From Candidatus Sumerlaeia bacterium (GTDB lineage: Bacteria; Sumerlaeota; Sumerlaeia; SLMS01): a stretch of DNA of 10,640 nt. The translations under genes were made by a program, and so were the position numbers. The notes beneath the pieces were generated by a model. It was not told the origin of the DNA and searched no databases. It worked only from the letters and a program-made list of their open reading frames with translations. The DNA lies in NCBI GenBank assembly GCA_038208905.1, contig JBBQYG010000145.1:1-10640 (forward strand), read 5' to 3'. Shown piece after piece: positions 1 through 10,640 of this stretch (positions are counted from its first letter, which is position 1; each line of letters opens with the position of its first letter).

Positions 1-675
1 CTCGACCAGGACGCCGTCGGCGGACGCCAAGCATTCCTTGCAGCGTGGCAACGCATGGTCAGCGGAGAAGCCCAGATCATCCTCGGCACCCAAATGATCG
101 CGAAGGGTCTCCACCTCGAGCGCGTGACACTCGTGGGCGTCATCCTCGCGGAGGTCGGCCTCTTCATCCCCGATTTCCGCGCCGAAGAGCGCACGTTCTG
201 CCTCCTTACCCAGGTCGCCGGGCGCTCCGGTCGTGTGAGTATGGGCGAGGTGATTCTCCAGACTTACATGCCCCAGCAGCCGGCGATCGTCTTCGCCGCA
301 GCGCACAACTACGAGGGCTTCGTGGAGGCAGAGATGCAGCGCCGCCACAAGTCGCGCTTTCCCCCGGTCGAGCGCCTCATCGCGCTCACACTCGCGGGGG
401 AGGATTTTGATCGGACGGTTTCCCAGGCCAGGAATCTGACCGGAATTCTGCGGCGCATCGCGCAGAAAAGCGACTGGCGGTCCTGCCGCGTGCTGGGTCC
501 ACTTCCCGCGCCCATCGAGCGTCTGGCCGGGCGCTATCGACAGCGGATCCTCCTGCGCGGCCCCGTCGCATCCACCAATGCGGGGCTTCTCCGCGCGGCG
601 CTCGCCGATTCCCAGTGGAAGGCTTCGGCATCCGTCGCACTCTCGATCGATGTGGATCCGATTGATCTACTCTAG
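1..675 (+). CDS. priA: Primosomal protein N' (replication restart helicase), C-terminal part; 5'-truncated by the window edge
   Basis: Frame is open from base 1 (LDQDAVGG...). It has the PriA motifs ILGTQMIAKGLH, VTLVGVI, PDFRAEERTF-LLTQVAGRSGR and GEVILQTY, then the C-terminal domain VLGPLPAPIERLAGRYR...IDVDP. Stop TAG at 673-675. Confidence 0.97.
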   Translation, partial: LDQDAVGGRQAFLAAWQRMVSGEAQIILGTQMIAKGLHLERVTLVGVILAEVGLFIPDFRAEERTFCLLTQVAGRSGRVSMGEVILQTYMPQQPAIVFAAAHNYEGFVEAEMQRRHKSRFPPVERLIALTLAGEDFDRTVSQARNLTGILRRIAQKSDWRSCRVLGPLPAPIERLAGRYRQRILLRGPVASTNAGLLRAALADSQWKASASVALSIDVDPIDLL

Positions 676-1836
676 GGCGCCGAGCGTGGGCCATTCCTCG
701 ACGTTGGCGGAAGCGGGCACCACCGTGATCAAGCCAAGCTTCGTTTCTGAATCCTCGTTGCTCCCGTTGACCGCTACCAACTCCACGTCGAAGACCCCGG
801 GCGACGTATAGATGTATATCGGATTTCGATCCGTCGAATCCACCACGCCGTCCCGGTCAAAGTCCCACCTCCATGCCGATGCCGCCGCCGTGGAGGAGTT
901 CGCAAACGTGACGGCTTCGCCCACGGATGCCGTGGAATGGGAGACGCTGAATGCCGCCGTAACAGGAAGGTCAGAGAAAATGACGGTGATGCGGGGCACA
1001 ACTTGGCTGAGCGTCCGCAAGGCGGGTGTGCTCCCGCTCCAGTCGCCAACCGGCGTCCCCGAAGAGAGCGCCCGCCCCGCTCGTGTCCGGTCAACACCGG
1101 AGGCGAAACCCTCCAGCAGAAGGCTGGAACCCGTCGAGTCGGCCTCGAAGAGAAACGATATCCGAAGTGGCAGCGTCCCCGAATACACAAAGGGCGTATC
1201 CGCTGAGACCACCAAGGGACTGCCACCCACCACTGGCGCGAGGCCTCCCGTGTGCAGCGTCGTCCATCCTGCCGCGTCGAGGTTGTTGGAGGCAAAGGTC
1301 GAACCGGATGCCTCCTTCAGGCGGGCAGTAATGGTCCCACTCGCTGCGCCCGCTCCGACGGTGGGATGAATGGCCAGTCCTTCAAGAGAACCAGCGCGCC
1401 CCAGCTCCTCGGGATACAGGATGATCTCCGTGTTGACCAGCAAGGCCCCCCGATGCAGCGGGTACTCCGTTGTCGCGGTGCTCAGCCCGCCGACCTCGAC
1501 CGCGCTGCCGCGTCGAATCTCCACGGCGTTCGCCTTTGCGCCCGGCTGCCCTCCGCTATATGTATAGACAATATGATGCAGGGCGGCGGAAAGCGCCGCC
1601 GTGTTGGCCGCGGCCTCGATCTGCGCCGCCGACTGGCTGACGATCTGGAGCGGAGTGTCCGCCGCGCCGGGCCTCCGCAGCGCGAGGCCCTCGATGCCGG
1701 CCAGGTCGCTTCCGGTGATGGTCCAGCGCGTCATGCTCGCCGCATCCGCCACACTTGGGGAAACGCCGCCGATCGTGGGCGCCGCCACCGCGTGGACCGC
1801 GAGGAAAGCGAGTGCTATGGCGAGCAGGCGCGTCAT
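667..1836 (-). CDS. Secreted/surface protein (389 aa): signal peptide, IPT/TIG-like domain, beta-sandwich domain and C-terminal PKD domain
   Basis: Start reassigned to ATG 1836 (MTRLLAIALAFLAVHAVA|APT, Sec-type signal). The longer ORF from 2103 overlaps the kinase gene. APTIGGVSP...WTITGSDL is IPT-like. AAFSVS...VGEAVTFANSS...WRWDFD.DG..DST.RNP.Y.YTSPG.FDV.L is a PKD signature. Confidence 0.85.
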   Translation of the reverse strand: MTRLLAIALAFLAVHAVAAPTIGGVSPSVADAASMTRWTITGSDLAGIEGLALRRPGAADTPLQIVSQSAAQIEAAANTAALSAALHHIVYTYSGGQPGAKANAVEIRRGSAVEVGGLSTATTEYPLHRGALLVNTEIILYPEELGRAGSLEGLAIHPTVGAGAASGTITARLKEASGSTFASNNLDAAGWTTLHTGGLAPVVGGSPLVVSADTPFVYSGTLPLRISFLFEADSTGSSLLLEGFASGVDRTRAGRALSSGTPVGDWSGSTPALRTLSQVVPRITVIFSDLPVTAAFSVSHSTASVGEAVTFANSSTAAASAWRWDFDRDGVVDSTDRNPIYIYTSPGVFDVELVAVNGSNEDSETKLGLITVVPASANVEEWPTLGALE

Positions 1837-1840
1837 TTCG

Positions 1841-3481
1841 TCAGGCTGGCTTTCCCGGGACGCGGATAGCCACCCGCAGCCCTCCAAGATTCGAGTCGAT
1901 CGTCGCCTCCGCGGAGCCGCTATTCTCCTCGGCGAACTTTGCCACCATGGCGAGGCCAAGGCCCGTCCCCACGGAGCCCTTGGTCGAATAGAACTGGTCG
2001 AAGATCGTCGCCAGATTTTCTTCCGGCACCCCCGGCCCGTTGTCTGAAACGGCGAACTCCAGCTCATTTCCAAGGTCGGTGATTTCCAGCCGAACGAGAC
2101 CATCCTGGGCGACGGCGTCCCGCGCGTTGGAGATTAGGTTCATGAGCGCGCGGTGCAGCCGATACCGATCCAATAGATACCTCCCCTCCACGTCGCAGAG
2201 CACCTCGAATGCGTGGCGCTTCTGCTGCGCCGCGGCTTCTGCCTCGCCTGCGATGTCACCCAGGAGATCCTCCAGCAAGACCTCCTCCGGCTCCGGTGCC
2301 CGTTTCTTGGACAAGTCGAGTAGGTCGAGCACCAGGTTTTCCAGTCGGCGCACGCCATTGCCAATCAGTCGGGAACTGGTCGCAATCTGGCCGAAGTCCT
2401 GTTTCTCCAACCCCTTCTCCAGGATCATCGTAGATCCCTTGAAAACCGTCAGCAGATTCTTGATGCAATGCGAGAGCGTGGAGAGCGTGGAACCGATCGC
2501 GGCAAGGCGTTCCGCCTCCACGTTCTTCTTCACAAGGCGCTGATTGGAAATCGCCATCGCCAACAGGCTCGCGAAAACCTCTGTCGTTGCCAGATCGGCA
2601 GGAGACAGTTCGCGGCGCCGGTTCGCCGACGCGAAGTTCACCGTTCCCAATACCTCGCCCTGCGACACAATCGGGGCACAAATCGAAGTTTCGACCTTGC
2701 CAGTCAGCGATCGGCTTCCCGGCTGGTCACCGATCATCAAGCGCGACCGACCGTGCTGGATCACCCAGTCCGTGATGCTGCCGGGCTTCACATCCAGGAG
2801 CTTATTGTCTAATGCGTCCGAAGCGCTGCCCACCGACGCCGCCAGCCGGAGTTGGTTCCCCTCCGCAAGGAGGATCGACCCGCGATCCACGCCCATCTGG
2901 GAGATGAACACGCGCAGCAACTTCCTGAACTGGATCAGGTCCTCCGTCACCAGATCGATCTCGCCCGCCGCGCGCACCAGCGTCTGCAGCCATCGCGTTG
3001 GATCGGGGAAATAGTAGTCGCGCTTTACTCCGCGCCCCTCCAACTCGTGGATGAGTTGCTCCGGCGTCGCGCCAGCCGGCAGCAACCCATCGGCCCCCGC
3101 CCGCATCAGGCTCAGGATGCGCTCGAGCTGAAAATGCCGCAGCATCACCACCACGCGCGTTGGGCGGAAAGCCACCGTCACAAGCTGCGTGCATTGCAGG
3201 AGGTCCTCGAACTCCGCTCCTTCGTCCAAGTCCAGCGCAACCACTGCCCATGCGGCGCCGGGCTCGCGCTTCTCCTGCCAGGAGGGCGAACGCCATTCCG
3301 ATCCGGGCACATGGACCAGTCGATGGGTACCCGCGCGGACGAGTCCGTCAAGCTGCGCCCCAAACTCGGCGCTCCCGCCGATTACCAGCAGCTGTACACT
3401 GTCAGAGACGAGACTGAGACCAGGCAGGTCCAATGTATGGCTCCGTTCATCCTCGGAAGGTTTTACGATCCTCTGGGGCAT
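1841..3481 (-). CDS. Cytoplasmic sensor histidine kinase (546 aa): degenerate receiver-like domain, GAF, HisKA and HATPase_c
   Basis: H-box LSHCIKNLL, N-box LMNLISNARDA, G1 DNGPG, F-box IFDQFYSTK and G2 GTGLGL. GAF segment RGSILL...LRLAASVG...SICAPIVSQGEVLGTVNF. No transmembrane helix. ATG 3481 preferred; an alternative TTG start lies at 3496. Confidence 0.93.
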   Translation of the reverse strand: MPQRIVKPSEDERSHTLDLPGLSLVSDSVQLLVIGGSAEFGAQLDGLVRAGTHRLVHVPGSEWRSPSWQEKREPGAAWAVVALDLDEGAEFEDLLQCTQLVTVAFRPTRVVVMLRHFQLERILSLMRAGADGLLPAGATPEQLIHELEGRGVKRDYYFPDPTRWLQTLVRAAGEIDLVTEDLIQFRKLLRVFISQMGVDRGSILLAEGNQLRLAASVGSASDALDNKLLDVKPGSITDWVIQHGRSRLMIGDQPGSRSLTGKVETSICAPIVSQGEVLGTVNFASANRRRELSPADLATTEVFASLLAMAISNQRLVKKNVEAERLAAIGSTLSTLSHCIKNLLTVFKGSTMILEKGLEKQDFGQIATSSRLIGNGVRRLENLVLDLLDLSKKRAPEPEEVLLEDLLGDIAGEAEAAAQQKRHAFEVLCDVEGRYLLDRYRLHRALMNLISNARDAVAQDGLVRLEITDLGNELEFAVSDNGPGVPEENLATIFDQFYSTKGSVGTGLGLAMVAKFAEENSGSAEATIDSNLGGLRVAIRVPGKPA

Positions 3482-3606
3482 TGCCCCGCGAGTCAATGCC
3501 CTATGCCAATTTGGCTCCTCATTGGGTGAGGGGCGTCGGCGAATCCCACTAGCGGTCGCGGCCTACAGCGCCAAGGTTTCGCCGCCTTCGGATTCAAATC
3601 CGCTGA

Positions 3607-3619
3607 AATCAAATCCTTG
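3607..3619 (+). promoter_or_regulatory. Candidate IHF binding site
   Basis: AATCAA-ATCC-TTG matches WATCAA-N4-TTR exactly. It lies in an AT-richer patch about 30 bp upstream of the sigma54-like motif at 3648. Confidence 0.45.
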
Positions 3620-3647
3620 CAATCTCCTACCCCCCAGAAGGCCATTG

Positions 3648-3663
3648 CGGCATGACTTCTGCC
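3648..3663 (+). promoter_or_regulatory. Candidate sigma54 (-24/-12) promoter for the YceI gene
   Basis: CGGCATGACTTCTGCC has GG at 3649-3650, N10, then GC at 3661-3662. It is a partial match to TGGCAC-N5-TTGC and has an upstream IHF-like site. Confidence 0.4.
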
Positions 3664-3728
3664 CAAGTGGGAATGCATCTCAGTCGTCCATCCCAAGCCT
3701 CACCAACCCAGCCGAAGGAGTTCCTCCC

Positions 3729-4487
3729 ATGAAGGTTCGCGTCGTTCGGAGTCTCGCCGCCGCTGTCCTCGCCATTTCTGTGCTTTCCGCCCCCGCCTAC
3801 GTATCCGCCCAGGACGAGGCCAAGCCGGCAACCTTCGACGTCACAAAGTTCATCGGCGCCGACGGAAAGCTGACCCAGGGCGATGTCCCCCTCGGCACGA
3901 TTTCCTTCGTCGGTACAGCCCCTGGCAAGAAACACGATGGCGGCTTCGCCAAGTGGCGATTCACCAAGGTGGACATACCCGGCGGCGACCTCGCCAAGGG
4001 GATCATCGAGCTGGAGATAGACATCGCCTCCGTCCATAGCGACGCGGGAAAATTGACGAACCACCTCCAGCAGCCCGATTACTTCTCCGCGGCCGAATTC
4101 CCCAAGGCCAAATTGGCCATCAAGAATGCCAAGCCGGGGGAAAAGGATTCCAGCGGCGCCCAACTCTACGAAGCCGACGGCGAGCTGACGATCCGCGGCG
4201 TCGCGGCCCCCCTCACGGTTACCTTCTCTGTCGTCGAAGAAAAGCCCCTCAAGGTAAAGGGCACCGCCACCGTCAATCGCGACAGCTTCGGCGTCGGCCC
4301 CAAGTCCAACCCCGAAGCCCCCCGCACCCCGAATGCAGATGTCGCCATCGTCTTCGAGACCTTTGTCCCTGAGAAGATCGAGGCTCCCAAAGCCGTTGCG
4401 GAAATCGAGAAGAAGGTGGACGATGCCGCCGCAAAGGTTGGGGCCGCCTTGGACGCCGCCCTCCCCACCCCGCGCAAGTCGCACTAG
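3729..4487 (+). CDS. Secreted YceI-family (polyisoprenoid/lipid-binding) protein, 252 aa
   Basis: GAAGGAG RBS at 3714-3720 before ATG 3729. Signal peptide MKVRVVRSLAAAVLAISVLSAPAYVSA. YceI motifs HDGGF, IELEIDIASV, LTNHL..PDYF.A.EFP.A, GELTIRGV and VNRDSFGVG. Ala/Lys-rich C-terminal tail. Confidence 0.9.
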   Translation: MKVRVVRSLAAAVLAISVLSAPAYVSAQDEAKPATFDVTKFIGADGKLTQGDVPLGTISFVGTAPGKKHDGGFAKWRFTKVDIPGGDLAKGIIELEIDIASVHSDAGKLTNHLQQPDYFSAAEFPKAKLAIKNAKPGEKDSSGAQLYEADGELTIRGVAAPLTVTFSVVEEKPLKVKGTATVNRDSFGVGPKSNPEAPRTPNADVAIVFETFVPEKIEAPKAVAEIEKKVDDAAAKVGAALDAALPTPRKSH

Positions 4488-4955: not shown

Positions 4956-5336
4956 ATGAAGCCCAGCACCCCCTTCTCGGCGGCACAGAGAGTCAGCAGT
5001 CAGAGGGCGATTGTCTCGCTCGCACACGACGATGCGACACCCGCCGGGGATTACCACGCGGCCGTCACAAGGATATCGCCGTCAGGTATCCGGATTGCAC
5101 TGGAGGTAGCACCCAAGACGGACATGCGCACGCTCTATCGCTGCAATCCGCGGGTGGACCTCTTGCTAGACCTGCCCCGCCCGCTCAAGCCGGTGCAAAC
5201 GCAAGGGCGTATATCCGGAGTGGCGATCAATCACGGCGTGGACGAGCCGCCGATGGTGATCGACTTGGAATTCCTCGAGTTGACGGCGGAAGAAGAAAAG
5301 GCGCTGCGGGATTCCAACCCAGCGCTGGTCGTTTAG
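4956..5336 (+). CDS. Stand-alone PilZ-like domain protein with degenerate c-di-GMP motifs, 126 aa
   Basis: Beta-barrel pattern AAVTRISPSGIRI...VDLLLDLP....VQTQGRI...IDLEFLEL followed by the helix TAEEEKALRD, typical of PilZ domains. It has its own promoter and RBS. Confidence 0.7.
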   Translation: MKPSTPFSAAQRVSSQRAIVSLAHDDATPAGDYHAAVTRISPSGIRIALEVAPKTDMRTLYRCNPRVDLLLDLPRPLKPVQTQGRISGVAINHGVDEPPMVIDLEFLELTAEEEKALRDSNPALVV

Positions 5337-5345
5337 GGAGGACTA

Positions 5346-5458
5346 AAGTTTGGGGGCTCGCCTCTGTGGCGGGATCTGGTCTCGAAGCAGTCATGGGTGT
5401 GTGGGTCCCATGCCTGCTCCGAAACCGCAAAAGGGTCCGGCGAGCCCCCAAAAAACTT
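5346..5458. repeat. 113-bp rod-like inverted-repeat element between convergent genes (MITE/REPIN-like or structured RNA)
   Basis: Perfect 14-bp IR TTTGGGGGCTCGCC (5349-5362)/GGCGAGCCCCCAAA (5439-5452). Inner ~20-bp imperfect stem at 5378-5397/5407-5426. Outer AAGTTT/AAACTT ends flanked by CTA on both sides (5343-5345, 5459-5461). Confidence 0.7.
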
Positions 5459-5469
5459 CTAACTGCCGA

Positions 5470-5943
5470 TTAGGCCGTTGCGCCCAATTCGGAGGTGCAG
5501 TTCGGGCAGCGAGAGGCCCTGATCGGAATCGCCGTATAGCACTTCGGGCAGTCCTTCGTTGTGGGGTCGGGCACAGCGGCAGCGGCTGCCGCCTTTGCGT
5601 CGTCCTTGGCCTTCAGCTTATTGATGAACTTGATCATCAGGAAAATCGCAAAGGCCAGGATCAGGAAGTCCAGCACCTGGTTGGTGAAGATGCCATAGTT
5701 GATCGTCGGCGCCCCGGCCTCCTTCGCCGCCGCCAGCGAGGCGTGACCCGCCCCCGAGAGATCCAGATACAGCTCAGAGAAATCCACCCGGCCGAGCAAC
5801 AGACCGATCGGCGGCATGAGCACATCGCTCACCAGCGAACTGGTGATCTTCCCAAACGAGGCGCCGATGATCACGCCCACCGCGAGGTCGATCACGTTGC
5901 CCCGCATCGCAAACGCCTTGAATTCCTGAACGAAGCCCATCAT
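5470..5943 (-). CDS. mscL: Large-conductance mechanosensitive channel with C-terminal zinc-ribbon-like tail
   Basis: Contains [44 protein letters not shown] and INYGIF...[16 protein letters not shown]. Start is ATG 5943 or 5940; the ORF-track extension to 6393 overlaps the next gene. Tail is CPKC-x10-CPNC. Confidence 0.97.
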
Positions 5944-6065
5944 TTTGATCCTTTTCGGTTGGTGGCCGGGGGAGCCCCGACTACTTGCACTGACCCGGTA
6001 GAAGCCCATCAAACCCGTCCGACCGTCAACAGATATGACCCCCCCAACTGGGATAGGCGAACTGG

Positions 6066-6872
6066 TTACAATTCCAATTCCATCCACCGCGGCCGCCCAT
6101 AGTCGCTCGGGATCACCGCCGTGCCGATCGGCGACATGCCGACCCGATCCACCACTCCGTTCAGGCCAACGTGGGTGTGGCCGCTGACCACATAGCGCAC
6201 CTTCGCGTGCCGCCTGATTTCCTCCCCCAGCGTCAGGTGCCCGAAGTATGGGTTCCCCATGGACCACTGCGCGTCTTCGGGATGGCGGTCCATCTGCGAC
6301 TCGAACGCAGGAACGTGGGTCGCCACCAGAACCCGGTCCACGGCGGGGTTGGCCTCCAGCGCGGCCAAATGGGCCACAAGGCGCTCCCTGCAACGAGCTG
6401 CGAATTCAAGATCGTTGTACTCCCAATCCACGCGTACCGCATCCATGGCGAATCGCGGCTTGGTCTTGGCGATGTCATCGTCGGACTGGCCGTAGGATGG
6501 CTCCCTCGCGCTATAGTCATACCACGCGATGTTGCCGCAGACCCCCACGCCACCCGGTAGCACCAACGGCGCCTCGTCGAGCCAATGGAACCCCATCGAC
6601 CGCGTGATTGCCGGCAGGATCTCTCCATACAGCCCGATGCTCGTCTCCCCAAGGCTCGTCCACACGTCGTGATTCCCCGGCAGCACCGCCACCGGGCAGG
6701 AGAGCTGGAGGAACGGCACGAGGCACTGCTCGAAAAGGCGCGACGGATTCCCGAGATCACCGGCAAGCACCACCAGATCCGGATCCTCGCGATCCATCCC
6801 GGCGACGAGCCGGCGAATCGGCTCGATTCCTGTGATTTCAACATGCAGATCGGACGCGATCAGAACGCGCAA
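6066..6872 (-). CDS. Calcineurin-like metallophosphoesterase (268 aa)
   Basis: All five motifs are present: SDLH, LAGDL, PGNHD, THVP and SGHTH. Likely TTG start at 6872 ([10 protein letters not shown]) with GGAG upstream. No signal peptide. Confidence 0.9.
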
Positions 6873-6945
6873 CGGTCGAAACTCCGCGCATGGGGATGGA
6901 CGCGTCTTGTGTGGCGCGCGAGTCAGTGCGGCCAGCAATCAATAG

Positions 6946-6975
6946 GATTCCCCCCTCCTTCGCAAGGGGGGAATC
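6946..6975. terminator. GC-rich hairpin just downstream of the ggt stop (terminator/REP-like)
   Basis: GATTCCCCCC-TCCTTCGCAA-GGGGGGAATC is a perfect 10-bp stem. On the minus strand it is followed by CTATTGATTG, a weak U-tract. Confidence 0.5.
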
Positions 6976-6980
6976 AGCCA

Positions 6981-8672
6981 TCACGGCGCGGCGGGGGGAA
7001 TCAGCCTCACCGCTCCGTCGCGGCGGGGGTCGGCGGCGGCTCCCATTGCTGGCGTGCCGTCCGAAGCGGGCTCGATCCAGCAACCCTGCGCACCGCCGAA
7101 GTACGCGTCCATCTCGCCCAATTCCTGAGTCTTCCATTCGGCTCCGGGTGCCAGCAGGGCCAGCGCCTCTTCGATTTGCTCGGCGCTGTATCGCTTCTCG
7201 TAGGAGATCTTGCCGGCCTTCGTGTCCACATGGATGCGGCGACCGTTGATGGCGTCCTGAAGGCTCTCGCCAAAATCGATCTTCCTCACCATGATCTGGG
7301 CCATTGTTCCCGGGATGCGCGTCCCACCTGGCGAACCGACCGACGCGATCAGCTCGCCATCCTTCATCACCAGCAGCGGCGTCATGTTGGAACGCGGAAT
7401 CTTTCCTGCGGCGGGAAAATTGACGGAGTCCGACTCGAAATCGAAGTCGATCATTTCATTGTTTAGCAGGATTCCCAGCGACCCCACCATCACCCCCGCG
7501 CCAAAGAATCCGTTGATCGTGCTCGTCAGCGCCACCGCGTTCCCTTGGGCGTCGATGACCGAGAAGTGCGAGGTGTTCCCCGACTTCTCGTCCTTCGCGG
7601 CGGCGGGGGGGGCGGGGTTTGGTGGTGGTAGGGTGGTCCTTGCGCGCGCCGCATCGATCCACTCCCGGCTCGTCAGCTCTGCCATCGGGATCGTTGTGGT
7701 CGCCGGATCCGCCAAGTGCTTGCGCGCCGCTTCCTGCGCTGCTGCTGCCGCGCCGATATACAGTGCGAGGTGCTCCTTGGAATCCAAGCCGTATGACTTC
7801 AGGTCATAGGCCTCCAGGCACGCGAGAATCTGCAGCAACTGAAGCCCGCCGGAACTCGGCGGCGCGGCCGTCACGATGTCGTACCCGCGATAGGTGCCCA
7901 TCAGCGCCTCGCGCCAGCGCGGCTTGAAGTTTGCCAGATCCTCCACGGCAAGCACACCCCCCGCCGCCTGAACCGCGTCGGCGATGGCCTTGGCACCCAC
8001 GCCCGAATAGATTGCCGAGTCGCCCTCCGCAGCCAGCCGCCGAAGCGTGGCGCCCAACGCGGGCTGCTTGAGAATGGTCCCGGGTTCCAATGGAAACATC
8101 CCATCGGTGAGATAGGTGGCGCTGGCGGCCTCGCTTCCCATGAGCATGTCCATCTTCTCTTCCGCCTGGCGACTGAATAGCTCCGACACGGCAAAGCCCT
8201 CCTCCGCGTGGCGTATCGCCGGAGCCAGCAGCCGATCCAGCGGCATGGTGCCGAACTTGGCGTGGGCCTCCAGCAGTCCGCGCGCTGAGCCCGGCGTCCC
8301 GACGGAAAGGCCACCGCTCCGCATCGTGGAACTTGCCGGCTTGCCGTCCTTGGTGAAGTGCTGCTCCGTGAGCGCGGCGGGAGCCGTCTCGCGGTAGTCC
8401 AGGAAGTAGGTCTTCCCAGTTGCCGCCTCGCGATAGATCAGGAAGCCGCCGCCGCCAATACCGCTTGCCTGGGGCTCGACGACGTTCAGCGCAAAAGCAA
8501 CCGCGATGGCGGCGTCGAGCGCGTTGCCGCCCTCGCGGAGCACGCCTTCGCCTGCCTCCGCGGCAAGCGGATGGGCGGCGGCGACGGCGGCGCCACGCGA
8601 TGGCTTCAACTCTGCGAGGGCGTGAATGGGCATCAGAATCGACAGCAGCAGTGGGATGGCTAGAAGGCGCAT
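6981..8672 (-). CDS. ggt: Secreted gamma-glutamyltransferase (563 aa), CapD-like by context
   Basis: Signal peptide MRLLAIPLLLSILMPIHALA. Motifs HPLAAEAG..VLREGGNALDAAIA, EPQASGIGGGGF, LDYRETAP and PPSSGG. Autocleavage site N|TSHFSVID (Thr367, codon 7574-7572), plus STINGFFG, GSPGG and ADPRRDG. Confidence 0.95.
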   Translation of the reverse strand: MRLLAIPLLLSILMPIHALAELKPSRGAAVAAAHPLAAEAGEGVLREGGNALDAAIAVAFALNVVEPQASGIGGGGFLIYREAATGKTYFLDYRETAPAALTEQHFTKDGKPASSTMRSGGLSVGTPGSARGLLEAHAKFGTMPLDRLLAPAIRHAEEGFAVSELFSRQAEEKMDMLMGSEAASATYLTDGMFPLEPGTILKQPALGATLRRLAAEGDSAIYSGVGAKAIADAVQAAGGVLAVEDLANFKPRWREALMGTYRGYDIVTAAPPSSGGLQLLQILACLEAYDLKSYGLDSKEHLALYIGAAAAAQEAARKHLADPATTTIPMAELTSREWIDAARARTTLPPPNPAPPAAAKDEKSGNTSHFSVIDAQGNAVALTSTINGFFGAGVMVGSLGILLNNEMIDFDFESDSVNFPAAGKIPRSNMTPLLVMKDGELIASVGSPGGTRIPGTMAQIMVRKIDFGESLQDAINGRRIHVDTKAGKISYEKRYSAEQIEEALALLAPGAEWKTQELGEMDAYFGGAQGCWIEPASDGTPAMGAAADPRRDGAVRLIPPAAP

Positions 8673-9778
8673 GGCAGGTTGTCTCTCTGTGGGTTGACAT
8701 GGCGCGGGCCACGTGGGGCACGGCAAAGCAGGGCGATGCAGGGCAGGGCGATGCCCACGATCAGGGCGATGGTTCTCCGCGGGGCGGACAATGAAACAGC
8801 GGAAGGAATCCGATCAGACAACGAGTTCAATTGCCACCCATTCTGCGTCAGCAACCCGCGCAGATCGAGTACATTCAGCACGGGGACACCTCTCGCCAGC
8901 GATGCGGCCACAAGGCTCGCGGGTTTTTCCGGGGCGGCAATATCGCCGGGAAGAATCAGCCCCCGCGGAGTCGCAAGCGCCTCGCGTCCCGTGCCGAAGT
9001 TCGTGACGTGACCGCCTATATTGATATACAGAGCCACAGGTTCCCCGCCATCGAGGAGCAGCTCCTCGCGCAGGCGCAGGCTCTCCGCGCGGCTCTCCGG
9101 CAACGCGACGCGCGGCGCGCCAGTCTCCTTCGAGATGGCGTCGAGGCGTGCCATCAGGAACGCACGGTCGGCCCCCTCGAACCCCAGCGCGCGGTCGTCG
9201 TCGCCGCCGGGAGTGATCGCCACGATGGCCGGGGAGAAGTTGGCCTCCCGCACCAGAACCTTCTCCATCTCCCACAAGTCGAACTCCGGAATCGTGGCGC
9301 CGTGATTGGATGCGGCCAACGACCCCACGGCGCGCACGCGCAGGCCCATCGATTCCGCCGCGACACGGGCAGCGAGCAGTAGCCCGGGAAACGACCCCGA
9401 ACTCCCGATGCCGACGATATCGCCCGGCTTAAGACCGACCTCTGCAAACCATCGCCGAAACTGCACGACCCACACGGGATGGGCGGAAAGCTGCTTGGCG
9501 TCGAGGATTCCCTGTGTGGAGACGAGCGGACTCCACTCGATTCCCACGATGCCCGTATTGAGCGGATCGACCATCGCCAACTCGCGGCGCGTCTCATCGC
9601 CGATTCGCGCGTCGCGGGCGCGATGAAGCGTGGCGCGCGCGGCCAGAAATCTGTCCACCGCCACGCGGTCCGCCGGGGCCAGCGACTCACCCGTGCCTAC
9701 GCCGATCGACACCATCGCCCACGCCATTGCCAGCGCGGAGATGCCGAGGACCGAAAGCGCGACGAGCCGATTCACCAT
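8660..9778 (-). CDS. pgsW: Poly-gamma-glutamate system protein PgsW (372 aa), N- and C-terminal TM helices
   Basis: Motifs DPLNTGIVGIEWSPLVSTQGILDAK, GLKPGDIV.IG.SGSFPG, S..ASNHGA..P.F, YINIGG and GVPVLN match the family found with pgsB/pgsC (recalled as TIGR04332). Lies directly downstream of pgsC. Confidence 0.85.
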   Translation of the reverse strand: MVNRLVALSVLGISALAMAWAMVSIGVGTGESLAPADRVAVDRFLAARATLHRARDARIGDETRRELAMVDPLNTGIVGIEWSPLVSTQGILDAKQLSAHPVWVVQFRRWFAEVGLKPGDIVGIGSSGSFPGLLLAARVAAESMGLRVRAVGSLAASNHGATIPEFDLWEMEKVLVREANFSPAIVAITPGGDDDRALGFEGADRAFLMARLDAISKETGAPRVALPESRAESLRLREELLLDGGEPVALYINIGGHVTNFGTGREALATPRGLILPGDIAAPEKPASLVAASLARGVPVLNVLDLRGLLTQNGWQLNSLSDRIPSAVSLSAPRRTIALIVGIALPCIALLCRAPRGPRHVNPQRDNLPCAF

Positions 9779-10203
9779 CCCATCACCCCCGCCGCGATCA
9801 GCCGCGTGCTTCCCGCCGCCAGCGCCAGCGTCGCCAAAGTTGGCAACACGCCCTGCCGCGCGCAGGTGTCGGCCAGAACGCCCGGCACTACATAGCCGAT
9901 CACAAGAAGACCATAGGGCAGGACGCCGAACTGGGGGAGAAAGCCCAGCAGCCCCGCCTTCAACAGCAGTCCCGTCAGCACTAGAAAACCAAATCGCCTG
10001 CGGCCATAGAGAAGCATCCGCGGCTCAAGCAACCGATATACGCCCAGCGCCAGCAGCGCCACCGCCAGCGTGGCCACCACTTCCGATGGCTCGTGCAGCG
10101 CCAGCGCCACGAACCCCGGCACCACCACGCCACCCGGGGAGTAGCCCGTGATCTCCTCCACCAGAAGCGATACCACGATACCGATGGCAAAGATCGTCAC
10201 CAT
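9772..10203 (-). CDS. pgsC: Poly-gamma-glutamate biosynthesis membrane protein PgsC/CapC (143 aa)
   Basis: IGIVVSLL.EE.TG.SPGGVVVPGF.AL, LLYGRRRF and IGYVVPG.LA....RQG..PTL are diagnostic CapC motifs. GGAGG RBS upstream. Confidence 0.95.
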   Translation of the reverse strand: MVTIFAIGIVVSLLVEEITGYSPGGVVVPGFVALALHEPSEVVATLAVALLALGVYRLLEPRMLLYGRRRFGFLVLTGLLLKAGLLGFLPQFGVLPYGLLVIGYVVPGVLADTCARQGVLPTLATLALAAGSTRLIAAGVMGW

Positions 10204-10640
10204 GAGGAGACCTCCGCGCGCCGGCGCAGATCATCCCTCAGCATCGCGCCGTATCCGCCAGTATTCCCAACTAGGAAAGCGGTCCGTGGGGGGCCGTCGC
10301 CCGATGGCTCCCATCGCGGCGTATAGACAACGCCAGTCCGCCGGCGCCACCAGGAGGGCGGCGCCTCGCCGACGATGCGTAGCTCCGCTCCTGAAAGCAG
10401 GTGCCTAAAGGACTCAAGGCGCTCGCTCCGATCACGGCGATGGTTATAGACGTATAGACAGTCACCACGAGATTGCCCCGCGATTTGCTCCACGAGTGCA
10501 GCCGTCGATTCGCAATCGTTGGCTGAAAGAAGGTCATAGGCTACCATCCCGCCCACGCGATAGACGGCGATGCGCTGAAGATCGCGCGCCCTTGCCGCTA
10601 TCGCTTTGGCGATCGCGTCGGAGTGCAGCCCGCAATGCCT
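10197..10640 (-). CDS. pgsB: Poly-gamma-glutamate synthase PgsB/CapB, C-terminal part; 5'-truncated by the window edge
   Basis: Frame is open from 10640 (RHCGLHSDAIAKAIAARARDLQRIAVYRVGGMV...). It has SANDCEST (cf. AANDPxST), YNHRRDRSER (cf. NxRxDRxxR) and LVGNTGG (cf. GxGNIxG). It overlaps the pgsC start. Confidence 0.85.
   Translation of the reverse strand, partial: RHCGLHSDAIAKAIAARARDLQRIAVYRVGGMVAYDLLSANDCESTAALVEQIAGQSRGDCLYVYNHRRDRSERLESFRHLLSGAELRIVGEAPPSWWRRRTGVVYTPRWEPSGDGPPRTAFLVGNTGGYGAMLRDDLRRRAEVSSW

Follow-up and report, generated by a model that had tools for sequence, protein, structure and literature searches.

The window analysed here is the whole contig C145 (10,640 bp) of a Candidatus Sumerlaeia bacterium assembly (4.24 Mb in 301 contigs, 64% G+C, 93.9% complete). 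It appears to carry the distal part of an operon-like cluster of nine genes in the order DUF6305, GGT2, a secreted 330-aa protein, DctM-like permease, AstE/AspA-type zinc amidohydrolase, PgsB-like ligase, PgsC, PgsW and, as the last gene, GGT1 (GGT, gamma-glutamyltransferase). The cluster lacks CapA, the third subunit of the Bacillus machinery for poly-gamma-glutamate (PGA), and probably encodes a CapA-less polyglutamate synthase that is coupled to periplasmic trimming of the polymer and salvage of the glutamate.

In the window, the pgsB-like, pgsC, pgsW and ggt reading frames lie head to tail on the minus strand and overlap by 7 nt (pgsB/pgsC), 7 nt (pgsC/pgsW) and either 13 or 67 nt (pgsW/ggt), the last depending on whether ggt is read from an ATG or from a TTG. 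The longest open reading frame of GGT1 (6981-8726) starts at TTG 8726; the true start is likely the ATG at 8672, because it opens a typical signal peptide (MRLLAIPLLLSILMPIHALA/ELK) and overlaps pgsW by 13 nt. The name PgsW is adopted from the initial annotation of this DNA; the title of the matching family, TIGR04332, is "poly-gamma-glutamate system protein". The elements of the window that belong to the cluster are the following:

10197..10640, minus strand: 3' portion of the pgsB-like gene (147 codons), truncated by the contig end; by tblastn, 30-39% identity to the C-terminal part of the PgsB genes in all six relatives
9772..10203, minus strand: pgsC, integral membrane subunit of 143 aa; TIGR04011 108.5 bits (cut-off 96.45), PF14102 E 1e-30
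8660..9778, minus strand: pgsW, 372 aa; TIGR04332 210.3 bits (cut-off 100)
6981..8672, minus strand: GGT1, 563 aa from the ATG; PF01019 E 8.5e-139, TIGR00066 420.4 bits (cut-off 357.85)
6946..6975, minus strand: terminator-like hairpin 5 nt past the GGT1 stop codon; 12-bp stem with 7 G-C pairs, weak T tail

The stem of this hairpin is the longest of the four terminator-like sites in 5000-10640, a region in which the total of such sites is not above that of shuffled sequences (mean 3.8). Scans for sigma-70 promoters gave nothing exceeding shuffles.

The 147-aa C-terminal piece of the PgsB-like protein alone matched no family. The missing part of the gene lies at the start of contig C7 of the same assembly, followed on the same strand by five more cluster genes:

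C7:2-613, minus strand: 5' part of the pgsB-like gene, N-terminal 204 aa; TIGR04012 positions 5-182, 101 bits
C7, adjoining the pgsB 5' part, minus strand: AstE/AspA-type zinc amidohydrolase, secreted, 429 aa; PF24827
C7, beyond the AstE-like gene, minus strand: DctM-like permease, 449 aa
C7 3429-4421 (L002), minus strand: secreted protein of 330 aa, no family
C7, between the 330-aa gene and the DUF6305 gene, minus strand: GGT2, secreted, 565 aa; PF01019 E 1.3e-145
C7, far end of the cluster, minus strand: DUF6305 protein, secreted

The ends of C145 and C7 share no exact overlap. Their join is taken as real because the nine genes stand in identical order on single contigs in G016 (L013) and G010 (L014), two relatives that belong to different families; judged from the L014 coordinates, roughly 13 codons of pgsB would be missing between the two contigs. 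Signal peptides could be read from the translations of GGT1, GGT2 and the AstE-like, DUF6305 and 330-aa proteins. The initial annotation had described four overlapping minus-strand genes for PgsB, PgsC, PgsW and a GGT with signal peptide, the GGT being part of the operon. Reading frames and family searches confirmed these genes, and the place of the GGT in the operon agrees with its overlap with pgsW, the hairpin after its stop codon and an orthologue after pgsW in five of the six relatives. The extent of the unit had been drawn too short, however, as it comprises nine genes and includes a second GGT with a CapD-like residue change.

The CapA/PGA_cap family PF09587 has no match in the whole assembly, which widens to the genome the earlier statement that no capA follows pgsC (the same had been said of capE, a 47-aa peptide for which no search was made). 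A canonical capA just upstream of pgsB, named by the initial annotation as a finding that would speak against it, is not there; an AstE-like hydrolase gene occupies the place instead. Beyond this genome, a tblastn query with B. anthracis pXO2 CapA found none of 88 PgsW-bearing sequences, 62 of which are matched by the CapB and 73 by the CapC query. The proposal that PgsW stands in CapA's position is thus upheld as far as it concerns a CapA-less pgsB-pgsC-pgsW operon, in which PgsW would act as the substitute.

PgsC passes the curated equivalog cut-off of TIGR04011. The ligase appears to be a divergent PgsB-like protein: TIGR04012 is its sole NCBIfam match, tblastn with B. anthracis CapB detects it at 33% identity, and the C7 fragment contains near its N-terminus the motif GMRGKST, presumably the nucleotide-binding loop of Mur-type ligases. 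The equivalog cut-off of TIGR04012 (222.7 bits) is not reached by full-length orthologues, which score 98 bits (L014, 384 aa) and 85.8 bits (L013, 383 aa).

PgsW matches no Pfam family, TIGR04332 being its only match. A profile search of 1.84 billion cluster representatives (50% identity clusters) returned 1467 members of the family at E <=1e-3; the phyla represented are numerous and for the most part uncultured. A protein atlas search gave clusters of the same family only. Among these proteins, natural fusions were found. PgsC-PgsW fusions form two separate clusters, one (P0176) with three 441-aa members from three contigs and the other (P0194) with three 424-aa members, one of them from an NCBI Bacteroidota metagenome-assembled genome. 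A single protein (P0198) joins PgsW to an AstE domain that matches the AstE-like protein of the cluster with E 5e-70 and 33% identity over 411 residues. PgsW presumably works together with PgsC, for which the fusions are the best evidence in this analysis. Other members of the family have unusual architectures as well: P0207 and P0267 carry C-terminal extensions of about 370 aa, considered as AstE-like domains and rejected as they show no similarity to the AstE-like protein, and P0135 (618 aa) contains two PgsW-like stretches.

An AlphaFold2 model of PgsW built from 71 sequences (predicted local distance difference test score, pLDDT, 90.2; predicted template modelling score, pTM, 0.82) places an alpha/beta domain at residues 86-312 between two hydrophobic helices, one near each end (2-26 and 332-351). 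Of 134 family members, 118 have a hydrophobic segment at both termini. A wide VIA-align search reached Z 8.0 at best (116 residues), with generic Rossmann-like folds throughout, and no metallophosphatase, the type of fold to which CapA belongs, was among the best matches listed.

How firmly these genes belong together was assessed in relatives and in other phyla. Above the cut-off, PgsW occurs in seven of 75 genomes of the phylum including this one, all from one order, and one further genome (G026) has a PgsW fragment at a contig end. Because it is so patchy in the phylum, the cluster fits an accessory trait, possibly a mobile one; its G+C content is not unusual. In five of the six PgsW-bearing relatives (L011-L015), which represent two families, a GGT1 orthologue with 46-49% identity directly follows pgsW, and a GGT1-type gene is present in all eight PgsW-positive genomes of the class sample. 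The nearest GGT1 homologues in the databases are two "Candidatus Sumerlaeia bacterium" proteins identical to the GGT1 orthologues of G016 and G007. In G026, one contig carries GGT1-type, DctM, AstE, DUF6305 and PgsC genes and a second one PgsW, a GGT2-type gene and a relative of the 330-aa protein, so that both GGT types lie inside the cluster with their positions swapped.

The survey of other phyla covered 80 PgsW loci (L017-L096), a biased sample found by a single peptide pattern; 35 of them are well flanked, with at least 5 kb on both sides. PgsC is present in 66 of the 80 (31 of the 35) and PgsB in 56 of the 80. At least two of the DUF6305, DctM-like and AstE-like genes accompany PgsW in 39 loci (24 well-flanked ones) and all three in 31. 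Any GGT is found in nine loci (six well-flanked ones, all six with the module), and directly after pgsW in L031 only; 11 well-flanked loci have neither module nor GGT. According to these counts, the general partner of pgsBCW is the three-gene module of DUF6305, DctM and AstE. Some lineages have GGTs besides, and the placement of GGT1 behind pgsW is typical of this order. Cultured, non-pathogenic organisms with this type of cluster include Rectinema subterraneum SURF-ANA1 (L047), Acetomicrobium hydrogeniformans (L066) and Leptospira biflexa (L081). Two groups of loci depart from the common arrangement. In seven Spirochaetota loci (L017, L018, L021, L022, L023, L041, L044) pgsW is followed immediately by a second AstE-like gene, which occupies the place of GGT1; six of these loci have the usual module several kb upstream of pgsB, and L017 is cut just upstream of pgsC. 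Six Atribacterota loci (L027, L029, L030, L032, L035, L039) have PgsW and no PgsB or PgsC detectable by tblastn (E 1e-4 or better); either these proteins are too divergent to detect or PgsW occurs there in another context.

The two secreted GGTs of the cluster differ in type. GGT1 scores 301.6 bits with the E. coli precursor, 298.2 bits with the B. licheniformis enzyme and 142.9 and 67.7 bits with two CapD chains; its identity to CapD is 28%. A quick maximum-likelihood tree of 59 GGTs (LG+G4, with support from the Shimodaira-Hasegawa-like approximate likelihood ratio test, SH-aLRT, only) unites the six pgsW-adjacent GGT1 proteins and 18 database proteins of unknown context as a clade with a support of 99. 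A second clade, with a support of 100, holds the four GGT2 proteins; its sister group (support 92) comprises six of the 12 pgs-linked GGTs of other phyla, namely those of KSB1, Rectinema, Thermotogaceae and three Gammaproteobacteria. CapD forms a long separate branch, and both E. coli GGT and CapD fall outside the GGT1 and GGT2 clades.

The nucleophilic Thr of GGT1 aligns with E. coli T391 (GN-T-SHFSV), and R114, T409, N411, D433, S462, G483 and G484 are kept, the oxyanion Gly-Gly being intact. N411 and D433 are retained in all six members of the GGT1 clade, with Glu at 430, and all four members of the GGT2 clade show N411G and D433N, positions at which CapD has S and N. GGT1 has a 10-residue gap relative to the E. 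coli lid loop (438-449) and aligns gap-free to the lid-less B. licheniformis small chain; in all 22 pgs-linked GGTs examined the loop is 8-12 residues shorter than in E. coli GGT. In the passages of the review PMC8062742 that concern this region, the lid loop is given as Pro438-Gly449, the open cleft of lid-less Bacillus GGTs is thought to admit PGA and grafting a lid onto B. subtilis GGT shifted it away from PGA use; E. coli D433N lost transpeptidation, kept hydrolysis and gained a glutaryl substrate without alpha-amino group. A table in the same paper suggests that B. subtilis E442/D445 correspond to E. coli 430/433, which would give GGT1 the B. subtilis pattern. On these residues, GGT1 may be an end-acting gamma-glutamyl hydrolase able to take the polymer and GGT2 an enzyme with a CapD-like pocket. 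Part of the individual residue roles reportedly comes from Okada et al. 2006.

It is conceivable, though unlikely, that GGT1 is instead a CapD-type transpeptidase that anchors the polymer covalently to the envelope, for example to peptidoglycan, and so builds a capsule. It occupies the operon position of capD, directly after the third synthase gene, holds it in five of six relatives and has no lid loop, like CapD. Yet it keeps Asn411 and Asp433 and has Glu at 430 as in B. subtilis GGT, scores about 300 bits with E. coli and Bacillus GGTs against 143 and 68 with CapD, and does not group with CapD in the tree, and the CapD-like residue change sits in GGT2. In a two-membrane cell, moreover, a polymer anchored to peptidoglycan would remain periplasmic and form no surface capsule. 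The label "CapD-like", given to GGT1 by the initial annotation, was thus not borne out, and its idea of a hybrid system also found no backing: there is no sign of mixed Bacillus and Fusobacterium cassettes (no search for a Fusobacterium PgsW was made).

The AstE-like protein scores 33 bits with PF24827 (cut-off 25), and its motifs GGTHPNE, NLNRVYPG and DFHE align with PDB entries 2qj8, 6twm and 3na6, its best PDB matches being members of the AstE/AspA and DoeB family. The cluster has no NlpC/P60-type PgdS and contains the AstE-type enzyme instead. No sequence link of this enzyme to phage PGA hydrolases emerged, as PHROGs gave no match for it; the DUF6305 and 330-aa proteins and PgsW have no match in PHROGs either. 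The DUF6305 protein was modelled (pLDDT 81.8) with a flavodoxin-like fold, for which Foldseek gave no specific match, and its sequence has no match in the PDB. The 330-aa protein, which matches no family and no PDB sequence, consists in part of two internal repeats of about 85 residues each; relatives were encountered only within this class (L013, L014, L106), and none in the 80 loci of other phyla.

Going by the gene identities, order and conservation, the lack of CapA, the residue patterns and the fusions, the nature of the product, the specificity of each enzyme, the direction of transport and the fate of the polymer can be pictured as follows. The PgsB-like ATP-dependent amide ligase, PgsC and PgsW would polymerise glutamate via gamma-amide bonds and export the chain through the inner membrane, a joint action suggested by homology, gene overlap and the natural PgsC-PgsW fusions; PgsW would take the place of CapA/PgsA. 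Outside the cytoplasm, three secreted enzymes would cut the polymer, as judged from their residues and the chemistry of their families. GGT1, of the B. subtilis type with an open cleft and still able to bind a free alpha-amino group, would remove glutamate from the amino end. GGT2 with its D433N and N411G changes should tolerate an acylated amino group, which would permit internal cuts or transfer. The AstE-type amidohydrolase, whose family frees Glu or Asp from N-acyl derivatives, might act from the carboxyl end or on gamma-Glu-Glu. The DctM-like permease, perhaps together with the secreted DUF6305 protein, would re-import the released glutamate. The net result would be an extracytoplasmic polyglutamate whose length and amount are controlled and recycled by the cell.

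A bolder extension of this proposal, doubtful at present, is that PgsW-type systems as a whole represent a distinct and widespread polyglutamate machinery of two-membrane bacteria, with PgsW as a new synthase subunit that some lineages have fused to PgsC. The polymer would then stay in or cycle through the periplasm as a regulated polyanion, serving as osmotic buffer or as glutamate and nitrogen store and forming no classical capsule. In the Sumerlaeia-like version, GGT2 would perform CapD-like internal cutting or transfer, GGT1 would attack the chain end and the AstE-type enzyme the other end, and the permease would close the cycle.

Several observations weigh against the proposed synthase with trimming and salvage, and some of them concern the tie between GGT1 and the system. 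In the sixth relative (G024), a separate contig without neighbouring cluster genes carries the GGT1 orthologue (52% identity), and three genomes of 90-92% completeness in which PgsW was not found (G001, G020, G021) have GGT1-type genes alone (41-49% identity, tblastn), with no cluster gene within about 8 kb. These cases indicate that GGT1 is not bound to the system. Absence of the lid loop is common in bacterial GGTs; it permits the use of a polymer and is not diagnostic. GGT1 might accordingly be a general periplasmic gamma-glutamyl hydrolase, acting on glutathione or gamma-glutamyl peptides, that came to lie beside pgsW by chance in this lineage. It exceeds the TIGR00066 cut-off, the standalone and relocated genes agree with such a role, and so does the rarity of GGTs in other phyla, with nine of 80 loci and a single case directly after pgsW. 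This explanation is nevertheless very unlikely: pgsW and GGT1 overlap by 13 nt and the hairpin follows only past GGT1, the position is kept in five of six relatives from two families, the second secreted GGT and the AstE-type hydrolase point to gamma-glutamyl polymer chemistry, and the genome has a third GGT (on C228), YwrD-like and without signal peptide, for the cytoplasm. The earlier claim that the GGT is tied to pgsBCW hence holds for the synteny in this order and is loosened by the three standalone genes and the scarcity of GGTs elsewhere.

Other difficulties concern PgsW and the product. For PgsW, Foldseek against the PDB gave no match at E 1e-3 or better (best E no better than 2e-3, TM scores <=0.28), and neither Foldseek nor VIA-align found a structural relative that explains its role. 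Its orientation, with the tails in the cytoplasm and the domain outside, is slightly favoured by a weak signal, the mean K+R of the tails (3.07 and 3.23) exceeding that of the domain side (2.57 and 2.00). No outer-membrane exporter is visible in the cluster, which bears on the destination of the polymer. Glutamate racemase was not found either (no match to TIGR00067 or PF01177 in the assembly, a lead rather than an absence given some 94% completeness), a result that bears on the polymer's stereochemistry and on where D-Glu would come from. Because the PgsB orthologues lie well under the TIGR04012 cut-off, the ligase is divergent and its product could differ.

PgsB-like, PgsC and PgsW might hence make or modify another gamma-glutamyl compound, for example a glutamylated component of the envelope or short oligo-gamma-glutamates in the periplasm, rather than free high-molecular-weight PGA, and the hydrolases and the permease would edit that product. 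The low ligase scores, a PgsW unrelated to CapA by sequence and with a generic alpha/beta fold, and the lack of an exporter all fit this explanation. The same holds for Francisella, where, in the passages of the sources on its capBCA locus, the locus is needed for virulence, capB and capC are reportedly dispensable for capsule production and its function is listed as unknown. This alternative is improbable all the same, as PgsC passes its equivalog cut-off, the ligase has TIGR04012 as its sole NCBIfam match, tblastn with B. anthracis CapB and CapC detects these genes directly, and three kinds of enzymes for gamma-glutamyl or N-acyl-glutamate bonds travel with them.

The other features of the window lie past the cluster. 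The next gene after GGT1, beyond the hairpin, is the following:

6066-6938, minus strand: metallophosphoesterase, PF00149 E 4e-15

As a stand-in for CapA it was rejected, because tblastn with it finds nothing in the loci of the six relatives. The relocated GGT1 of G024 also adjoins a Metallophos gene (L102:5869-6837), which has only motifs in common with the 6066-6938 protein (E 0.01). Some open reading frames overshoot their genes: the MscL domain begins at residue 152 of the minus-strand frame 5470-6393, and the YceI-like domain at about residue 248 of the plus-strand frame 3189-4487, which has a signal-peptide-like start further in. The frame of a PKD-domain protein (667-2103, minus strand) overlaps that of a GAF histidine kinase (1841-3496) by 263 nt. 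On C7, a gene with a phage-integrase domain and Sel1 repeats (7722-9095, plus strand; L002) lies about 0.9 kb past the DUF6305 gene, beyond a pilin-like gene (6814-7566).

Among known systems, B. anthracis capBCADE (pXO2, L100) resembles the cluster in combining a CapB/PgsB-type ligase, CapC/PgsC, a third membrane protein and a secreted lid-less GGT in one operon. It differs in having CapA (PF09587) in place of PgsW (TIGR04332) and CapD, to which GGT1 is 28% identical while keeping Asn411 and Asp433; five further genes, including the second GGT, the zinc amidohydrolase and the permease, are added here, and the host is not a Firmicute. B. subtilis, with pgsBCAE, PgdS and an unlinked ggt, shares the lid-less GGT with Glu/Asp at the equivalents of E. 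coli 430/433, an enzyme that degrades the polymer there. In the present cluster, by contrast, the degrading enzymes and the transporter lie inside the synthesis cluster, PgsW replaces PgsA and an AstE-type enzyme occurs without an NlpC/P60-type PgdS. The idea that B. subtilis recovers glutamate from its own PGA is said to go back to Kimura et al. 2004. The PgsW clusters of other phyla have the same PgsB-like/PgsC/PgsW core and, in 39 of 80 loci, the DUF6305/DctM/AstE module; unlike them, the cluster described here has two GGT paralogues of different clades, the 330-aa protein and GGT1 directly after pgsW (elsewhere only in L031).

Francisella tularensis capBCA, in the passages on it, is likewise a locus of three genes in a Gram-negative host and a homologue of the cap locus of B. 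anthracis; unlike here, no GGT or module genes are reported beside it in those passages. Table 3 of one paper names the product of F. tularensis "capA" "poly-gamma-glutamate system protein", the title that NCBI gives to TIGR04332. That Francisella CapA belongs to the PgsW family is a lead only, drawn from the product name; it stands among the points against the proposal, together with the capsule results above.

The reviews on PGA, in the parts concerned, describe only PgsBCA(E)-type machinery and name F. nucleatum as the Gram-negative producer. No paper on the function of PgsW was found among the matches listed, and none for TIGR04332, DUF6305 or PF19823, supplements lying outside the search; a Sumerlaeota genomics paper (PMC10866078) contains no occurrence of polyglutam-, capsul- or gamma-glutamyl. 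The PgsW-type system is thus known to annotation models, with no experimental description found in the literature, in line with the view of the initial annotation that the variant is uncharacterised.

Polyglutamate biology rests almost wholly on the pgs/capBCA(E) systems of Bacillus and Staphylococcus. If clusters such as the one described here indeed make and recycle polyglutamate, the polymer would be far commoner in nature than assumed and CapA would be dispensable for its synthesis. New PGA-active enzymes and a compact CapA-free synthase would become available for biotechnology, and the findings may also have a bearing on the unexplained capBCA locus of Francisella.

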